Source of the DNA: an uncultured archaeon
GTDB taxonomy: Archaea; Altiarchaeota; Altiarchaeia; IMC4; SCGC-AAA252-I15
Direction: 5' to 3'
DNA length: 11,062 nucleotides
Assembly: GCA_902384455.1 (NCBI GenBank)
Contig: CABMCB010000084.1
Coordinates: 1 to 11,062 of the forward strand
The position numbers were made by a program, and so were the translations under genes. A model generated the notes under the pieces. That model saw nothing but the letters and a program-made list of their open reading frames with translations, was not told the DNA's origin and ran no database searches. Position 1 is the first letter of the stretch, and every line of letters begins with the position of its first letter. Positions 3,355 to 11,062 of the stretch are shown here, in pieces.

Positions 3355-3461
3355 GGAATTTTGTCTTATCCCTGTGTTTTTGCTGAATTTTTCTCGTAAT
3401 TTGTGGGCGCTGTTTGTTTTATTTACTATTGGTTACGAATTTATTACGGGGGTTTTGTGTG

Positions 3462-3536
3462 ATGCAGAGAGGTCTTACTGTCTCTTTTGTTTTTCTTGCG
3501 GCAGTCTTTTTTTTGATCTCCCCTTTGGTGGATGCG
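3462..3536 (+). other. Sec signal peptide of the giant protein
   Basis: Basic N-region (MQR), hydrophobic core (LTVSFVFLAAVFFLI), Pro, then a V-D-A cleavage motif. Confidence 0.8.
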
Positions 3537-6500
3537 GTTGCGTGCGAGTTCCTTGACAATAGGGTGGATTGTTGCGCTGTTGAGGCTTGTGACTGGAGGG
3601 AAGACCGCTGTGGCGACGCCTTATTCGGGTTGAGGCCTGGATGCGAGGAGGTTGTTCCGCCTACGATCGTCTCTTGCACTCTGAATGAGACGAATGTGTC
3701 TGCTGGCTCTCAGGTTGCGGTTGATGTCGTAGTCAGTCACGGAGACCTTCATGTGGCGGAAGTAACTGTGACTTTCGATGAGGTTGCTTACGGATGTTCC
3801 GACGACCAACCTCACTGGTACACAGTATTGAACACGTCAGGTAAGGAGGGTTCTTACGGTTCGGAGGCGAACGCCCGCGATGAGGAGGGTAACAGGGCCG
3901 ATTCTATCAAGTGCGATTCCCTCAATGTTTATGTTGTTCCGCCTTCGATTTTAGACTGCTTCCTGTCTCCTGATGACGTCGAGCAAGGCGAGGATGTAGT
4001 CGCCAACGCTTCCGTGAGCGCAGGCTCGTACTCCCTCTCTTCAGTCTGGTTCGAGTACGACGGAACAAACAAATCCTATGACGGAAACGGAGGCGGCCGC
4101 TTTTGGGCGTCTTTGGCGACGTCTGCGCTTGAAGGAGTCTATCCGGTATTGGCTCGCGCCAACGACACGGACGGAAACTTTGCTTTGGAGTTTCCGTGCG
4201 GAAACTTCACTGTCACGACAACGACCACCACGACTACTACCACCACTACGACGACCACTACTACGATAAGCGGGTGGCTGGGTAACACACGAATTGCGGA
4301 AACATCCGAAGTATCCCTTAACCCCGTAATCGCCATTTTAGGCGGCGTACCCCACGTTGCTTGGGAAGACGCCAACGGCAGCGCAAGCCGAATATTCTAC
4401 TCCTCCTTCACCGGCAGCTGGGCTACCGCCGTCAACCTCACTTCACTTGGAACAGCCCGCAGGCCAGCCCTAATATCCAACGGCTCGGCATTAACGTTAA
4501 TTTGGGACGACAACCGCTCAGGAACCCGCAGAGTATACGCGAAGTGGTTTACTTCCTCATGGGGCACATCAAGCCAGGCAAGTGCCGGCGCAGCGGAAAA
4601 CGCCTCCGCCTGCTTCTCATCAGACGGAACACTACACGCAGCATGGCAGACGTCAGGCAGAATAACGTCACGCGCATACGTCAACGCCAACTGGACCACC
4701 GAAGAAAACGCGTCAAATGCCGGGTCAAGACCTGTCGTAGCTTACGACCACTCAAATCGCCTCAACATAATATACGCGGGAAGCCCGCTGGCTTACAGGC
4801 GCGGCACAGTCTCAGGAGTATCATACGGATTCACAGACACGGACGTAGACGGCCTGCCTGATTCGGTGGAGCTTGGTTACGCCAACCAGTCTCACAGCGA
4901 GTACAACGACGCCGACGCAGGAGCCACAAAGACTAATTCCACTGAATACGACACCGACGGCGACCACGTGCCCGACGGGTGGGTGGACGGCTGGACTTTT
5001 CTTTCAAACGGCACGTGGGGCCTTGACCCGACACTTAAGGACGGCTTGTTTGAGAAGTGGGAGGGCGAGGATGGCGACACAGACGGCGCCGTTGATGCGG
5101 GTGAAACAGACCCAAATTACGCCGACAGCGACGGCGACGGGCTGCCTGATGGATGGGAAGCTTGGTACGGACTCAACCCGCTGATTGCGTCCGGCGTGGA
5201 CGGCGCGTCAGGCGACTTCGACGGAGATAGTGTGGTTAATTCAGTCGAATACGCGCGGGGAACAGACCCCTCCAAATCCGACACTGACGGCGACGGCATA
5301 GGAGATTCCACCGAGATTTCCTACGGCTCAAACGCCACTTTCTACGACACGGACGGAGACGGAGTTGCGGACGGAAGCGAATACGCGCCTTGGACCGACT
5401 CAAACATCGACGGAGTAATAAACATCAAAGACTCAGACAGCGACAACGACGGCCTAATCGACGGCAAAGAATTAAGTCCGACGCTCGACTCGGACGGCGA
5501 CGGAAAAGCCAACGTCGTAGACTCAGACAGCGACGGCGACAACGTCACAGACGGCAAGGAACAATCATATAACATTGACTCCGACGGCGACGGGAAAGTC
5601 AACATGCTTGATTCCGACAGCGACAACGACGGAGTAAACGACGGAAACGAAGACTTAGACCGCGACGGAACAATAGAAGCATACAGCTATGAGACATCGC
5701 CAACAACCCCGGACACAGACGGAGACGGACTCTGGGACGGGGAAAACATCACAGTAGCCGGAACGTTCCACGGAGGCGAAACATCATACGGCACACTCAA
5801 ACTCGACGCAGACACAGACAACGACGGCCTAACCGACGGAGAAGAAGCCGGCGGCTACGAGCTGCACATACAAAACTCAAGCGGATACGTAAGGACAGTC
5901 ACTGCATATTCCAGCCCGCTACTAACGGACACAGACTCAGACGGCCTCTCAGACAACATAGAACGCGACTTCTCCGACCCATCCTCATCAGACACAGACG
6001 GCGACGGATTATCCGACGCTTTGGAGGACGCAAACGCCAACGGCATAACGGACGGAACAGAATCAAGCCCCACAGACGCAGACACAGACGACGACACATT
6101 AAGCGACTACTACGAAGTCATGGTGTCGCATACCCTCCCAAACAACAAGGACACCGACGGAGACGGCCTGTGGGATTACGAGGGCAGGCGGGTCGTATTT
6201 AGGACGAACGCGTCGGACTTTGACGCATTAGGCGAGTACGAGGAAACGTGGGTTTACGGCCGAAGCTTCCTTTTGAGTTGCATTCCCTCCGCCATGAACC
6301 GCGTTGTTTACGCAACGTACAATCTCACTTTCAACAGGTCTCTTACTACGGTGGGGAGCCCGCCTCCTGGAGCGAACCAAGTGTGGTACAACAGCAGCAA
6401 CGGATTTATCACCCTTGGAACAAACATAACCCTCCAGCAGACTGTATGCTGCAACTACACGTTCTACGGCTCATCCCACCAGTACAATGAATGCCATCCG

Positions 6501-9500
6501 GGCCCGGGAAGAACATACAATTTGGACATGGCGTTCGGAGGATTTGCGCCCGTAAGCGAACTTGCCTGCTGGGTCGTCAACAACAGGTCAAGCACACAAG
6601 CCCTCACCCGGACGTCTGGTACTCCGCAGGCGGGGCAATACCACCTCTCCGAGTCAGACCGCAACTTATCATTAAGCGAAAACGTCAACGACGTTTCAGG
6701 CCGCACCCTCACTTTCAATTATACTTGCCGCCCCTACTTTGACTACGCGGATTCACGAAACGATAATTCGTGGATTGCTTTCCATTTGTCCGGCGACACG
6801 CTTTATGGGTTGGGCAGAATCGACGGGAAAACGTTCTCAGACGCGGATTTAGTGAGGCGCCAGATGACTCCTTACTCAACCACCCCCGAAGAGTACGTCC
6901 TCTACGCGATGCTGAACTCCACCACACCCTACGGCGACGTATGGCAGGCGACATACGACGTAGGCTGGAAAAGCGACGGGGTAATAGCATTGTTTGTGGG
7001 GGCCAACGGAAGCGTCTACCGCTACAATGCGACGTCAGATTCAATAGAGATTCTTTCGTCGCCCACCACAAGCATCCTGCGCGGCGTAGACTATCGGCCT
7101 AACAGCAACACCGCGTTGATTGTGGGAGACGGGGGGACGCTGTTGGTATATAATGGAACTAGCATATACTCGCGTGCGTCAGGCACAAACGACAGTCTGC
7201 GGGACGTCGCTTGGAAGCCGGACGGCTCGTACGCGTTGATTGTCGGCGGAGACGGGTTAGGTGTTGGGCGCGTCCTAATCTACTACTCAAACGGCTCAGT
7301 CTCAACCCTCAATTCCGGCGTAACCGACCTCAACGCGGGAGCATTCACATACCTGAACTCCGTAGCCTGGCACCCAAACGGCACTTACGCATTGATAGCC
7401 GGAGACTGGCGCTCAACAAACAGAAACTACACTCAACTAGACGACAGAAACCGCGCCGGAGGAATAATCCCCGCAAACTGCACAATCACATACAACCTCC
7501 CCGCGCTACTCCTCTACAACGGCACTTTCACTCAAATAGACAAGCCGGGAATACGCTGGTACACGGGAATGCCATTCGGCAGGATAGAATGCTACCCCGA
7601 GTACCGCTACCTCTGGTGGACCCTCCAAGGCATCGCATTCAAACCCTCAACATCAACCGCAGCAATCACGGGACGAGGAAAACTCTACACATACGACACA
7701 TCATACGCCTACACCGAAACAAACATGGAAGGCGTTCTAGAATACAACAGCACATTCGGCCTGTACACAAACGAAGGAACAGTCACTTTAGGGAGGATTT
7801 CATTCACCGCCGACGGTAGTTACGCCTACTTCGTGGGCGGCAATGCGACGTACCGCCACAGCCCAGGCTACGGGTGGTCTTCCTACTTCAGGGCGCCATT
7901 AGTGGGCTCAACATACATGCGGGCCGCATCCATGAACCCCACCAGCAACATAACAATAAGCTTCTTTGCGGGAGACGTATTCCTCCTATACGGCAGCGTA
8001 ACATCAGTCCTAAAACACGATACTGCCCCATTCGCAATAGACGTGCCCGGAGACGCAAACCCCGCATACGGCTACGCATCAACAAACCCCCTTGCATGGG
8101 AAGGCTCACACGCCGAAACATCCGCGATACTCCAATCAGACTACGCAACCCGCCACCAAGAAAAATACGACGAAAACCTCGCAACCGACCCCCTCAACAG
8201 CGACACAGACGGAGACTACCTACTAGACGGCGACGAAACATCAATCCTCGAATACACAGACCCAGACGCAGACGGCCTCGCAAACCCACTCGACTCAGAC
8301 AGCGACAACGACGGACTACTCGACGGAGTCGAACCCCTCTGGAACGTGGACACAGACCACGACGGACTTGTGAACGCACTCGACTCAGACAGCGACAACG
8401 ACAACAATACCGACGCAACAGAAGTCCGCGTAATATTCCGCGTAGGAAGCACAAACTACACATCAGCCGGAAACTGGCTCGGAATATACAACGCAAGCAG
8501 CAGCACACTAGACGCATACAACTACCTCAATCCCACCGCAGGAAACACCACACCCATAACCCCAATGACATACACATTCCTTGGCGTAAACACCACAATC
8601 AAAACAGCCGAAGGATACGTAATATCCAAAACCGCAGACATATACGGCGGCATAATCCACATACCACTCGCAGAAGGAGGATACGCAAAATACGGCCACG
8701 TACAAACAATACCAAACAACACCCGCACACGCATACCAGAATACTCACTAACCGGCCGCGAAACATACGACGGAAGCCTAATGATAGGCACAGACCAAGA
8801 CGCAGACGGACTCGCAGACGCCGCAGACCCCTACCCAACCAACCCCGACGCAGACAACGACAGCCTCAAAGACGGATTCGAACATAACTGGAGCATAGAC
8901 ACAGACGGCGACGGCCTCACAAACATACTCGACGTCGACAGCGACAACGACGGTTTGCCTGACGGTTGGATAGATGGCTGGTGTTATAATGCGACGCGCG
9001 AAGGATTGCACCAGCACGCAAACGGCAGCATAGACGGGTGGGGCGTATGGTGCAATAGGACTGAAGGCATTAAGCAACGTTTTGAGGGAGAAGACTTGAA
9101 CCTCGACGGGGCCACGCTAAACGAAACAGACCCCTTAAGAAACGACACGGACGCCGACGACATCCTAGACGGCGCAGAAATCGCCATATACTCCACTGAC
9201 CCACTCATAGACTCAGACAGCGACGGCGACCGCGTATCAGACGCCGACGAACTAACAGGCTACTTCTGCGCAGGCGTCCTCGAAGCCGAAGACTTCTACT
9301 TCGGAAGAAACATAGCAGGATACTCCGAAATACTCTACCTCGCAGGAGGACTAGGCGCAAGAATACCCTACGGCAGCAGCATAACACTAAGAACAGTCGT
9401 CGAAACACCCGGCTACTACAACATAACCCTCTACGGATTCAACCTAAACAACACAATACTGCTGACCATAGCAAACGAAACAAACAAAACATCATACACC

Positions 9501-11062
9501 CTATACGTCGGCCCAAACAACAGCATCATTTACATGGGCAACCTCACTGCAGGCCTCCTTAACATCACCATCTACCCGTGGGAGTCGGGGAAGACCGCTC
9601 AGTTGGACCGCGTAGTCCTGTGGAAGCTGGGGTTGAACGCGTCAAACAACGACTCTGACGGCGACGGCATACTTGACGGCGACGAACGATTCAGGCTCGT
9701 GTCGCTTTCCGGCGGGACGACCATAATTGGGACTGCGCCGCTTTCAACAGACACGGACGGAGACGGCATGGGCGACGGCGAAGAACTGGCTGCCGGCACG
9801 TCAGGTTGGACGCAGGACTCCGACGGAGACGGAGTATCGGACACGTACGACTCCCAGCCGACGGAATTTATCGACGCTGGAAACAGCGAGTGGACGGACG
9901 AATTCCAGACGAACCTATTGGAATACAACGCTGAATACGTCATTTGGTGGCTTAACGGAACATCCTACTCCACAGGATACGGAGGCACGGAAGGCAGCCT
10001 CGGAAACGAGGGAGTCAAAGACAGCGACGTAACAGAAGAAGGAATCATCTCGTCATTAAATGGCCAGTACGACGCCGCAGACAACGCCACATTCAAGAAC
10101 TCGTACGTAGTGCGCGACATAGAACGCGACCCCTCACGATACAGCCACTCCGACAGCGACTTCATATACGAGCACGAATACGACCCATACCCAAAATACC
10201 GCCTGCACTACGACTACAACGGCTGGTTCTACAACGTCACAGTCACAAACAAACAGTCAGTCAACGTCGTCGCAGGAAGAGGAATGGTCCCAACATACCC
10301 GTGGACAATCTCGGACTACAACAGGGAAACCCACTACGTCCACACAACCAACGAAATATTCATAGAACGCGGAAAACCCCAAAGCGTCATCATAGAATTC
10401 AGCATATCCACCGAAAGAGACATAACATTCCGCGACTCAGACACATACTACGCGCTCCCAGCGGTAGAATACGTTTTCTACAAAAACGGGGGGCTAAACA
10501 ACGGAACAAACAACATCCTATACGGAGGAACAGCCGTAGCATCCAAACTCGACCCTGCACCCTGGGCCCACTCATACAGAATCTCAATCAACCTGCCGGC
10601 ATCCTACGCAACCCAAGACTCAGCAATACTCTTCATGATGCCCATGTTCATCCGAAGAACAGGCAACGAATACCAAAAGGAAAACATATACCTATCAGAC
10701 TTCTACGTCGCCTCCCTCCAAACCCAAGTCCCACAACACTCCTACGCAGCAATAACCAAAACAGAAGGCAACCTCACCCTGCTCACCGGCTCAATACCCA
10801 CAAACATAACTTCATACCACACAGGCACCAACACATTCGGAGCATTCAACACATACGTATTCAACTACGCAAACGAAACAGACACGCAAGACATACCAAC
10901 CAGCCAGATAGACACAGCGCTCACATCATCAGACGCAGTAGTCATAATCGCCACAACCGATGCATTAGTCGCCCAAATACAAAACACCGTAAACTGGACC
11001 GCCGCATGGTACATAGAAACAACAGACGACGACAACCTAACAAGCCGCACATTCAAAAAGAC
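3462..11062 (+). CDS. Giant secreted multidomain glycoprotein with DxDxDG Ca-binding (TSP3-like) repeats and beta-propellers; 3'-truncated, at least 2533 aa
   Basis: Manual translation from ATG 3462 (MQRGLTVSFVFLAAVFFLISPLVDA...) meets no stop before the window end (...DDDNLTSRTFKK). The ORF track lists nothing in this frame after 3221, consistent with a run-off ORF. The previous in-frame stop is TGA at 3384 and GGGGG lies at 3448-3452. Domain content is coherent and N-x-S/T sequons are abundant. Confidence 0.95.
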   Translation, partial: MQRGLTVSFVFLAAVFFLISPLVDAVACEFLDNRVDCCAVEACDWREDRCGDALFGLRPGCEEVVPPTIVSCTLNETNVSAGSQVAVDVVVSHGDLHVAEVTVTFDEVAYGCSDDQPHWYTVLNTSGKEGSYGSEANARDEEGNRADSIKCDSLNVYVVPPSILDCFLSPDDVEQGEDVVANASVSAGSYSLSSVWFEYDGTNKSYDGNGGGRFWASLATSALEGVYPVLARANDTDGNFALEFPCGNFTVTTTTTTTTTTTTTTTTTISGWLGNTRIAETSEVSLNPVIAILGGVPHVAWEDANGSASRIFYSSFTGSWATAVNLTSLGTARRPALISNGSALTLIWDDNRSGTRRVYAKWFTSSWGTSSQASAGAAENASACFSSDGTLHAAWQTSGRITSRAYVNANWTTEENASNAGSRPVVAYDHSNRLNIIYAGSPLAYRRGTVSGVSYGFTDTDVDGLPDSVELGYANQSHSEYNDADAGATKTNSTEYDTDGDHVPDGWVDGWTFLSNGTWGLDPTLKDGLFEKWEGEDGDTDGAVDAGETDPNYADSDGDGLPDGWEAWYGLNPLIASGVDGASGDFDGDSVVNSVEYARGTDPSKSDTDGDGIGDSTEISYGSNATFYDTDGDGVADGSEYAPWTDSNIDGVINIKDSDSDNDGLIDGKELSPTLDSDGDGKANVVDSDSDGDNVTDGKEQSYNIDSDGDGKVNMLDSDSDNDGVNDGNEDLDRDGTIEAYSYETSPTTPDTDGDGLWDGENITVAGTFHGGETSYGTLKLDADTDNDGLTDGEEAGGYELHIQNSSGYVRTVTAYSSPLLTDTDSDGLSDNIERDFSDPSSSDTDGDGLSDALEDANANGITDGTESSPTDADTDDDTLSDYYEVMVSHTLPNNKDTDGDGLWDYEGRRVVFRTNASDFDALGEYEETWVYGRSFLLSCIPSAMNRVVYATYNLTFNRSLTTVGSPPPGANQVWYNSSNGFITLGTNITLQQTVCCNYTFYGSSHQYNECHPGPGRTYNLDMAFGGFAPVSELACWVVNNRSSTQALTRTSGTPQAGQYHLSESDRNLSLSENVNDVSGRTLTFNYTCRPYFDYADSRNDNSWIAFHLSGDTLYGLGRIDGKTFSDADLVRRQMTPYSTTPEEYVLYAMLNSTTPYGDVWQATYDVGWKSDGVIALFVGANGSVYRYNATSDSIEILSSPTTSILRGVDYRPNSNTALIVGDGGTLLVYNGTSIYSRASGTNDSLRDVAWKPDGSYALIVGGDGLGVGRVLIYYSNGSVSTLNSGVTDLNAGAFTYLNSVAWHPNGTYALIAGDWRSTNRNYTQLDDRNRAGGIIPANCTITYNLPALLLYNGTFTQIDKPGIRWYTGMPFGRIECYPEYRYLWWTLQGIAFKPSTSTAAITGRGKLYTYDTSYAYTETNMEGVLEYNSTFGLYTNEGTVTLGRISFTADGSYAYFVGGNATYRHSPGYGWSSYFRAPLVGSTYMRAASMNPTSNITISFFAGDVFLLYGSVTSVLKHDTAPFAIDVPGDANPAYGYASTNPLAWEGSHAETSAILQSDYATRHQEKYDENLATDPLNSDTDGDYLLDGDETSILEYTDPDADGLANPLDSDSDNDGLLDGVEPLWNVDTDHDGLVNALDSDSDNDNNTDATEVRVIFRVGSTNYTSAGNWLGIYNASSSTLDAYNYLNPTAGNTTPITPMTYTFLGVNTTIKTAEGYVISKTADIYGGIIHIPLAEGGYAKYGHVQTIPNNTRTRIPEYSLTGRETYDGSLMIGTDQDADGLADAADPYPTNPDADNDSLKDGFEHNWSIDTDGDGLTNILDVDSDNDGLPDGWIDGWCYNATREGLHQHANGSIDGWGVWCNRTEGIKQRFEGEDLNLDGATLNETDPLRNDTDADDILDGAEIAIYSTDPLIDSDSDGDRVSDADELTGYFCAGVLEAEDFYFGRNIAGYSEILYLAGGLGARIPYGSSITLRTVVETPGYYNITLYGFNLNNTILLTIANETNKTSYTLYVGPNNSIIYMGNLTAGLLNITIYPWESGKTAQLDRVVLWKLGLNASNNDSDGDGILDGDERFRLVSLSGGTTIIGTAPLSTDTDGDGMGDGEELAAGTSGWTQDSDGDGVSDTYDSQPTEFIDAGNSEWTDEFQTNLLEYNAEYVIWWLNGTSYSTGYGGTEGSLGNEGVKDSDVTEEGIISSLNGQYDAADNATFKNSYVVRDIERDPSRYSHSDSDFIYEHEYDPYPKYRLHYDYNGWFYNVTVTNKQSVNVVAGRGMVPTYPWTISDYNRETHYVHTTNEIFIERGKPQSVIIEFSISTERDITFRDSDTYYALPAVEYVFYKNGGLNNGTNNILYGGTAVASKLDPAPWAHSYRISINLPASYATQDSAILFMMPMFIRRTGNEYQKENIYLSDFYVASLQTQVPQHSYAAITKTEGNLTLLTGSIPTNITSYHTGTNTFGAFNTYVFNYANETDTQDIPTSQIDTALTSSDAVVIIATTDALVAQIQNTVNWTAAWYIETTDDDNLTSRTFKK
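3651..4214 (+). repeat. Two tandem 94-aa Ig-like beta-sandwich repeats
   Basis: 3651-3932 (VVPPTIVSC...NTSGKEGSY...ARDEEGN...CDSLNV) and 3933-4214 (VVPPSILDC...ATSALEGVY...ANDTDGN...CGNFTV). Each is 282 nt with conserved first and last Cys. Confidence 0.8.
4215..4265 (+). repeat. Poly-Thr linker (17 Thr, ACN x17)
   Basis: 17 consecutive ACN codons with mixed third positions. Confidence 0.95.
4275..4805 (+). other. Four BNR/sialidase-like propeller blades
   Basis: Roughly 45-aa repeats of W...P-x-[IL]...H[VA]AW...[IV][FY]: PHVAWED, LTLIWDD, LHAAWQT, LNIIYAG. Confidence 0.6.
4836..6182 (+). repeat. DxDxDG Ca-binding repeat tract 1 (about 18 units)
   Basis: Runs from DTDVDGLPDSVE to DTDGDGLWDYE; consensus D[TS]DGDG[LVI]xDGxE...TDPxxxD. 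Confidence 0.9.
6945..8012 (+). other. Seven-bladed WD40-like beta-propeller
   Basis: Blade starts: YDVGWKSDG, LRGVDYRPNS, LRDVAWKPDG, LNSVAWHPNG, LQGIAFKPST, LGRISFTADG, MRAASMNPTS; each is followed by an ALIVG-like strand. Confidence 0.8.
8202..9860 (+). repeat. DxDxDG repeat tracts 2-4 (about 14 units), interrupted by inserted domains
   Basis: Tracts at 8202-8423 (5 units), 8793-9251 (6 units) and 9651-9860 (3 units). Confidence 0.85.
9276..9623 (+). other. CBM6/CBM35-like jelly-roll domain
   Basis: Begins VLEAEDF, contains TPGYYNITLY and GNLTAGLLNITI, and ends QLDRVVLW. This matches the EAE...G-x-Y...L-x-x-G...[LI]D-x-[IV] pattern of galactose-binding-like folds. Confidence 0.6.

Follow-up and report, generated by a model that had tools for sequence, protein, structure and literature searches.

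Contig CABMCB010000084.1, 11,062 nucleotides from an uncultured archaeon and hereafter called the window, carries a giant open reading frame (ORF) in which a small domain without a database name occurs twice. Downstream, the domain is uninterrupted; upstream, its landmarks recur in three separated pieces. We consider it likely that the upstream copy (6192-8180) is the downstream domain (8424-8780) with two of its loops opened, one by a cassette of 173 amino acids (aa) and the other by a propeller, all within a giant calcium-repeat surface protein. The case is carried by relatives of the domain in other proteins, which bridge two copies that scarcely resemble each other directly.

Two candidate copies of an unnamed domain

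The split copy, on the plus strand like every feature of this gene, begins with a first strand bearing the VVFRTNA motif (N piece; 6192..6221, aa 927-936). The 173-aa cassette follows as insert 1 (6222..6740), then a middle piece (SWIAF ... TPEEYVLY; 6741..6905, aa 1110-1164), the 376-aa propeller as insert 2 (6906..8033) and a C piece (IDVPGD..NPAYGY ... YATRHQEKYDENL; 8034..8171, aa 1541-1586), with the conserved end at about 8180. A TSP3-like linker of 84 aa (8181..8423) leads to the intact copy, which spans 119 aa (8424..8780, aa 1671-1789). All pieces of the split copy and the intact copy share the single reading frame of ORF 3414-11060. A sequence-only reading of this DNA had first pointed out the two copies; every string it quoted is found at its position and in one frame, the cassette has the 173 aa it gave, and the propeller is backed by Foldseek. 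The landmarks run in the order VVFRTNA, W, TPEGYxVY, Y-K-Y and HQETYDG, and the domain is small, at about 120-140 aa, and probably beta-rich.

Relatives were sought with aa 920-1800 of the window protein as query (7995 candidates scored). Most of the 18 proteins found at E ≤0.001 share the propeller or the repeats alone. P0005, an unnamed metagenome protein of 1936 aa, has the N and middle pieces contiguous, then the propeller, then the C piece (aa 496-578 plus 926-972), and has no cassette. Uninterrupted copies are present in P0013 (aa 2964-3104), P0019 (aa 2972-3111), P0020 with its full-length cluster member P0030, and P0021 (aa 239-378). In P0013 and P0019 (~3970 aa each) the domain is flanked by TSP3 units; P0020 and P0021 were added by a profile search of 248-2000-aa proteins, as 2 among 8000 scored candidates. 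When 30 fetched proteins were scanned, each domain-bearing relative had a single copy, and none had a half-copy.

These bridging sequences support homology of the window's two copies. In pairwise comparisons, each set against 1000 shuffles, the window's intact copy aligns to the P0013 domain with z 6.2 (0/1000 shuffles as high), and the three window pieces, stitched together, do so with z 5.1 (1/1000). The stitched copy of P0005 reaches z 11.4 against the same domain, and the two stitched copies reach z 27 against each other (0/1000 in both cases). A hidden Markov model (HMM) trained on nothing but the four foreign intact copies gives 16.4 bits to the stitched window copy, 23.1 bits to the stitched P0005 copy and 14.5 bits to the intact window copy, and none of 6000 controls reaches 14.5 bits (maxima, 2000 controls each: 8.8 bits for shuffles of the stitched copy, 13.6 for shuffles of the intact copy, 10.9 for random ordered triples). 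Run along the unjoined window protein, the same HMM matches aa 927-971 (model positions 2-42), 1571-1587 (120-136) and 1693-1787 (36-136), in the expected order, with one weak stray match at aa 1983-2029. Profile-to-profile comparison with hhalign connects the split copy to the four foreign copies with a probability of 95.6% (E 1.2e-8) over 38 columns that span the cassette junction, and the intact window copy to them with a probability of 80% (E 1.4e-5) over the C half.

HMMs for parts of the domain, made from the four foreign copies and slid along the window protein, locate the ends of the split copy. The first-strand HMM scores 20.7 bits at aa 926, the next best place in the protein scoring 5.6. 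Among 2495 windows, the C-half HMM ranks the intact copy first (15.8 bits) and the split copy second (8.4 bits, at aa 1555) over a background of at most 3.4 bits. The C piece also matches P0005 aa 926-952 (phmmer independent E-value (i-E) 0.0027), and its membership is modestly supported by these sequence comparisons. The conserved W and the TPEGYxVY strand are visible in both window copies in the 7-sequence alignment. The middle piece is tied to the family solely via P0005, since its score with the middle-region HMM lies within background: it matches P0005 aa 513-549 (phmmer i-E 4.2e-6), and the N and middle pieces of P0005 match positions 2-84 of the intact-family HMM (i-E 5.8e-7).

The two inserts

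Across the seven known copies of the domain the cassette is missing from six and the propeller from five, which bears out the view of the sequence-only reading that the domain hosts two inserts. That reading had described the inserts as nested like Russian dolls; they lie side by side instead, in two different loops.

The cassette contains 6 Cys and 8 sequons (N-x-S/T) and, in the 7-copy alignment, occupies a length-variable loop after the first strand. When the window protein is aligned with a 490-aa stretch of P0005 (alignment A5, 32% identity), one clean gap in P0005 covers it. At the equivalent site, the loop of the P0013-type copies reads DxDGDG-like (Pfam EF-hand, only E 0.26) and, from this sequence, possibly binds calcium. 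The fetched proteins include no relatives of the cassette, Pfam offers Ig_7 only (E 0.042), and matches in the ESM Atlas score below 0.9 under mixed Ig-like labels, making them leads at most. The GC content of its third codon positions (GC3, 0.647) equals that of the surroundings and so gives no sign of a recent foreign origin.

Two ideas about the cassette did not hold. A W-V motif near its start raised the possibility of a partial duplicate of the host domain, which is ruled out by z-scores of -1.4 to 0.3 against the middle piece, the P0013 domain, the intact copy and P0005. The 8-nt direct repeat ACTTTGAC (coding F-D; 6217-6224 and 6736-6743) at both cassette junctions is not significant as a target duplication, since 8-nt matches occur in this repeat-rich ORF at 2.5e-4 per position pair and a few hundred placements yield about 0.07 by expectation. 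An internal repeat within the cassette is weak (52/2000 shuffles as high).

Insert 2 takes the place of a hairpin of 8-9 residues that follows the EGYxVY strand, and in alignment A5 its insertion point is identical in P0005 and the window. We modelled aa 920-1595 with AlphaFold2 from a 5-row alignment, and the propeller is the only confident part of the result (mean predicted local distance difference test score (pLDDT) 49.4 overall). It contains 27 strands, with pLDDT 72-90 over model residues 260-410 (the first three blades) and 50-75 in the later blades, so that confidence is moderate in blades 4-7. Foldseek against the PDB retrieves seven-bladed WD40 propellers with target-normalised TM-scores of 0.72-0.79, including 7bie_A (E 2.7e-13, 0.78), 5yzv (0.73-0.78; chain C 0.77) and WDR5 (0.72-0.75), and the Pfam WD40 model gives 24.5-24.9 bits, under its gathering cut-off of 27. 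The model supports the assignment of insert 2 as a seven-bladed WD40-like propeller.

Where blades 4 and 5 of the model have low-confidence stretches, alignment A6 shows loop expansions specific to the window. Blade 4 has two of these, at 7400-7540 and 7580-7620 (aa ~1332-1378 and ~1388-1401); one of them has a Cys pair, and P0005 and three other propellers are without them. In P0002, P0003, P0010 and P0017, members of the same propeller family stand on their own between TSP3 units or form long tandem arrays. In P0017, Pfam recognises the propeller in two blocks (aa 231-341 and 589-656) with about 250 residues between them that have no Pfam match, and this propeller may itself carry an inserted domain.

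The propeller insertion appears to be the older of the two events, because it is common to the window protein and P0005 at ~32% identity; the cassette insertion appears younger, because it is seen only in the window copy.

Weighing the alternatives

Several results weigh against two copies of one fold. The sequence-only reading had staked the identity of its two copies on similarity between the stitched and intact forms, and this direct comparison fails: hhalign of the split profile with the intact window copy gives E 0.044 and a probability of 1.2%. The Smith-Waterman score of 30 (shuffles 28.5 ± 5.0) is equalled by 688 of 2000 shuffles and by 1301 of 3000 ordered triples drawn at random from the window protein. 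Profile coverage is uneven as well. The intact window copy scores 5.0 bits with the first-strand HMM, at background (5.6); the middle-region HMM gives 2.2 bits to the split and 4.1 bits to the intact copy, both inside background; the intact-family HMM recognises some 11 residues of the split C piece (aa 1576-1586, domain i-E 0.03); and the C-half HMM passes over the C piece of P0005. On the unjoined split region, hhalign picks up the first strand alone before straying into the cassette (E 6.2e-4, probability 28%). All profiles are shallow, since besides P0005 and the two window copies the family at hand has only four intact sequences that are effectively distinct. Structure prediction of the intact copy from a 5-row alignment is unusable (pLDDT 36.4), and in the model of aa 920-1595 the host pieces and the cassette all stay below pLDDT 50.

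Of the other direct measures, the end-free global score is marginal (26/2000 shuffles as high), the pairwise score has z 1.9 (55/1000), and a BLASTP search of the complete window protein with the intact copy returns scraps only (best E 0.021, elsewhere in the protein; N piece E 0.53, C piece E 13). The two window copies are scarcely alike directly because the split copy is a clear member of the family via its N part and the intact copy via its C part; from their sequences, the copies appear old and very divergent. For the original proposal of one intact and one split domain, membership of both copies in one family stands through the relatives and the HMM controls, while their direct comparison remains at chance. 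In substance the proposal is mostly right, but it counts too many levels of nesting, and the taxon it names finds no support.

Some of these results would also fit two independent small modules, one for the N part (VVFRTNA ... EGYxVY) and one for the C part (IxxP ... ETYDG), which are neighbours in the 'intact' form and flank the propeller in the 'split' form, nothing being inserted into a fold. No confident predicted structure shows one globule; the N-half and C-half profiles behave independently, strong in N and weak in C for the split copy and the reverse for the intact window copy; and the C-half profile misses the C piece of P0005. Yet both parts occur together, in the same order and between TSP3 units, in 7/7 copies, neither half stands alone in the 30 scanned proteins, and a mere 8-9-residue hairpin joins the halves of the intact copies. 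The two-module view would also leave unexplained the cassette, which breaks into the N part. We regard this arrangement as unlikely.

The direction of change could also be the opposite, with a long form containing the propeller, the cassette or both as the ancestor, compact copies arising by deletion and the window preserving a relic. The comparison is unrooted, and the two proteins that have the split form are very distant from each other (32% identity). Against this, the cassette is confined to one of the seven copies and has no relatives, the propeller is found in two of seven, and its free-standing or tandem occurrence in P0002, P0003, P0010 and P0017 fits a mobile inserted module, so that we think deletion very improbable. 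Chance resemblance, in which short motifs were picked by eye from a long, compositionally biased protein, would account for the direct scores, but it is largely refuted and hardly credible given that 0/6000 controls reach the profile scores, that hhalign crosses the cassette junction at E 1.2e-8, that P0005 has the N and middle pieces contiguous, and that the top and second C-half peaks of 2495 windows are the two predicted places.

A domain opened at two loops therefore remains the reading that we prefer, and in the split copy the three pieces would fold into one globule.

Calcium-repeat arrays and a possible adhesive role

The D.D.[DN][GNDS] pattern has 38 matches in the window protein, spread over three TSP3-like arrays. 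The first array (DxDxDG motifs; 4824..6191) ends in a complete unit just upstream of the split domain, the second is the linker between the two copies, and the third (8781..9383) contains a DGWIDGW element. Pfam TSP3_bac (PF18884) gives 19.7 bits on the window protein, under its gathering cut-off of 25, and 108.4 bits on P0005; though formally sub-threshold, the window repeats probably work as TSP3 repeats. The NCBIfam model for CglD (NF033765) matches aa 472-753 of the window protein (P0001 in our set) with 176.7 bits (E 5.9e-52), which does not reach the equivalog cut-off of 400, and partial matches to CglD and MtsD run through the repeats. The element in the third array follows the pattern DGW[IV]DGW...W...EGED, a small unnamed module that occurs twice in the window TSP3 arrays (4974 and 8961; aa 521 and 1850) and twice in P0005.

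The sequence-only reading placed the domain inside a calcium repeat and counted three levels of nesting. Because the domain sits between complete TSP3 units, that third level is an ordinary modular array only. With one complete repeat directly ahead of the domain and the next directly behind it, the two termini probably lie close together, and the domain would sit like a knob on a string.

Taken together, the gene product is predicted to be a giant secreted, heavily N-glycosylated archaeal surface protein with globular modules strung along TSP3-like calcium-binding repeat arrays. By analogy with COMP and CglD (10.1101/2023.10.19.562135), the repeats would bind calcium and form a semi-rigid string. 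The two loops, which would lie far from the domain termini, could then be sockets holding binding modules out to the surroundings, in the service of calcium-dependent adhesion or matrix binding; the propeller would be the likely binding module and the cassette a Cys-rich, glycosylated, lineage-specific guest. The whole protein may be a calcium-dependent adhesin or a cell-surface matrix protein. A bolder version, which we hold to be doubtful, is that the domain is a dedicated insertion-tolerant socket of calcium-repeat surface proteins, with a calcium-binding DxDGDG site in its first loop and a second port at its distal hairpin, and that lineages swap the inserts and so tune adhesion.

Namelessness and distribution of the domain

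The earlier description of the domain as unnamed agrees with the databases searched. Pfam matches none of five intact copies, save for the EF-hand loop at E 0.26 in one of them; an NCBIfam search with the domain matched nothing; PDB sequences yield no match better than E 0.082; and P0020 and P0021 have no precomputed Pfam entry over the domain. The literature matches listed for TSP3, archaea and propeller contain nothing on it.

As far as these searches reach, the family appears to be very small. With the intact window copy as query, phmmer against 1.84 billion representatives returned 0 matches at E ≤0.001, and the ESM Atlas returned no usable match. The P0013 domain, searched among 2182-6946-aa proteins (229 candidates), retrieved itself and P0019 and nothing else. 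In a scan of genome contigs, 5 stretches matched the pattern and 1 was confirmed (the P0019 contig). The sequence-only reading likened the motifs to those of DPANN surface proteins, which finds no support among the named relatives: the clusters of P0013 and P0019 bear Thermoplasmata or Thermoplasmatota names of metagenome-assembled genomes, plus one record labelled Planctomycetota. P0005 has 0.46 sequons per 100 aa against 2.90 in the window protein and, because its sequons are so few, may stem from a different kind of organism.

An HExxH motif marks the C-terminal region of the complete relatives (P0013 aa 3835, P0019 aa 3834, P0030 aa 3823, P0017 aa 1614), possibly a metalloprotease to judge from the motif.

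The giant gene and its surroundings

The giant ORF (3414..11060, plus strand) encodes 2549 aa, and its 3′ end is open at the window edge. Translation likely starts at ATG 3462, the first in frame, rather than at the listed TTG 3414; a hydrophobic, signal-peptide-like stretch lies directly downstream of this ATG. The protein has 74 sequons. Near its N-terminus (3640-4210) are two tandem repeats of ~92 aa (32% identity, E 1e-11), next to a run of 17 Thr residues (aa 268-284; 4215-4265) that looks like a glycosylated linker. Towards the other end, a further domain without a name is flanked by TSP3 units (9384-9803, aa 1991-2130); P0017 has a relative of it at aa 831-947 (31% identity, E 3e-9), and, judged by eye from its sequence, the window domain may resemble a carbohydrate-binding jelly roll.

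Upstream, on the strand opposite the giant ORF, lie genes for mevalonate kinase (649-1578; NCBIfam 230.3 bits, cut-off 163.05) and FtsZ (1664-2746; NCBIfam 373.8 bits, cut-off 295.2). Both genes speak for an archaeal genome, and with what is known of the mevalonate pathway an archaeal host is likely. ORF 2-625 on the plus strand has no family match in Pfam or NCBIfam.

Significance and comparison with known systems

The insertion of one domain into another is well known, integrins being the textbook case, and the principle is not new here. What is new is a small, rare domain, nameless in Pfam, NCBIfam and the PDB and so far seen only in giant calcium-repeat surface proteins, mostly of Thermoplasmata-type archaea, together with one gene that would contain both its closed form and a doubly opened form. 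Such a gene would offer a natural before-and-after pair for the tolerance of a small fold to guests of 376 and 173 residues, and the two permissive loops could guide the annotation of giant proteins that are today largely unannotated. For the attachment of wall-less or S-layer archaea to surfaces or partners, the bearing is indirect only. Should the domain prove to be a dedicated socket, the swapping of inserts, not of whole proteins, would set what these archaeal cells adhere to.

In integrins, the PSI domain houses the hybrid domain. The hybrid domain carries the beta-I domain as an insert, and the propeller carries the alpha-I domain between its blades 2 and 3 (PMC9856412). By analogy, the window protein shares with integrins an extracellular, adhesion-type setting, a binding module in a loop of a small beta-rich host, and propellers together with calcium sites (PMC9856412). 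The likeness is one of analogy only: the sequences show no relation, and Pfam finds no match to VWA, hybrid or PSI domains in the window protein or its parts. The window propeller is a guest whereas the integrin propeller is a host, the window inserts are parallel, and the organism is an archaeon.

CglD of Myxococcus is reported to be a calcium-dependent surface adhesin with COMP-like DxDxDG repeats (10.1101/2023.10.19.562135). The window protein shares with CglD and MtsD the long DxDxDG arrays bearing globular modules, but the similarity is limited to the repeats, and the VWA and EGF modules and the lipoprotein signal are not seen in it. The Thermoplasmata-type giants P0013, P0019 and P0030 ('choice-of-anchor J domain-containing protein', ~3970 aa) likewise place one intact domain between TSP3 units, with 32-35% aligned identity to the intact window copy. 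They differ in having a beta-helix and the C-terminal HExxH region, and their domain has no insert and occurs once, against twice in the window protein. Along the split domain, P0005 and the window protein are collinear, with the propeller at the same point and the DGWIDGW element in common, but P0005 is without the cassette and the second, intact copy, and its sequons are sparse.

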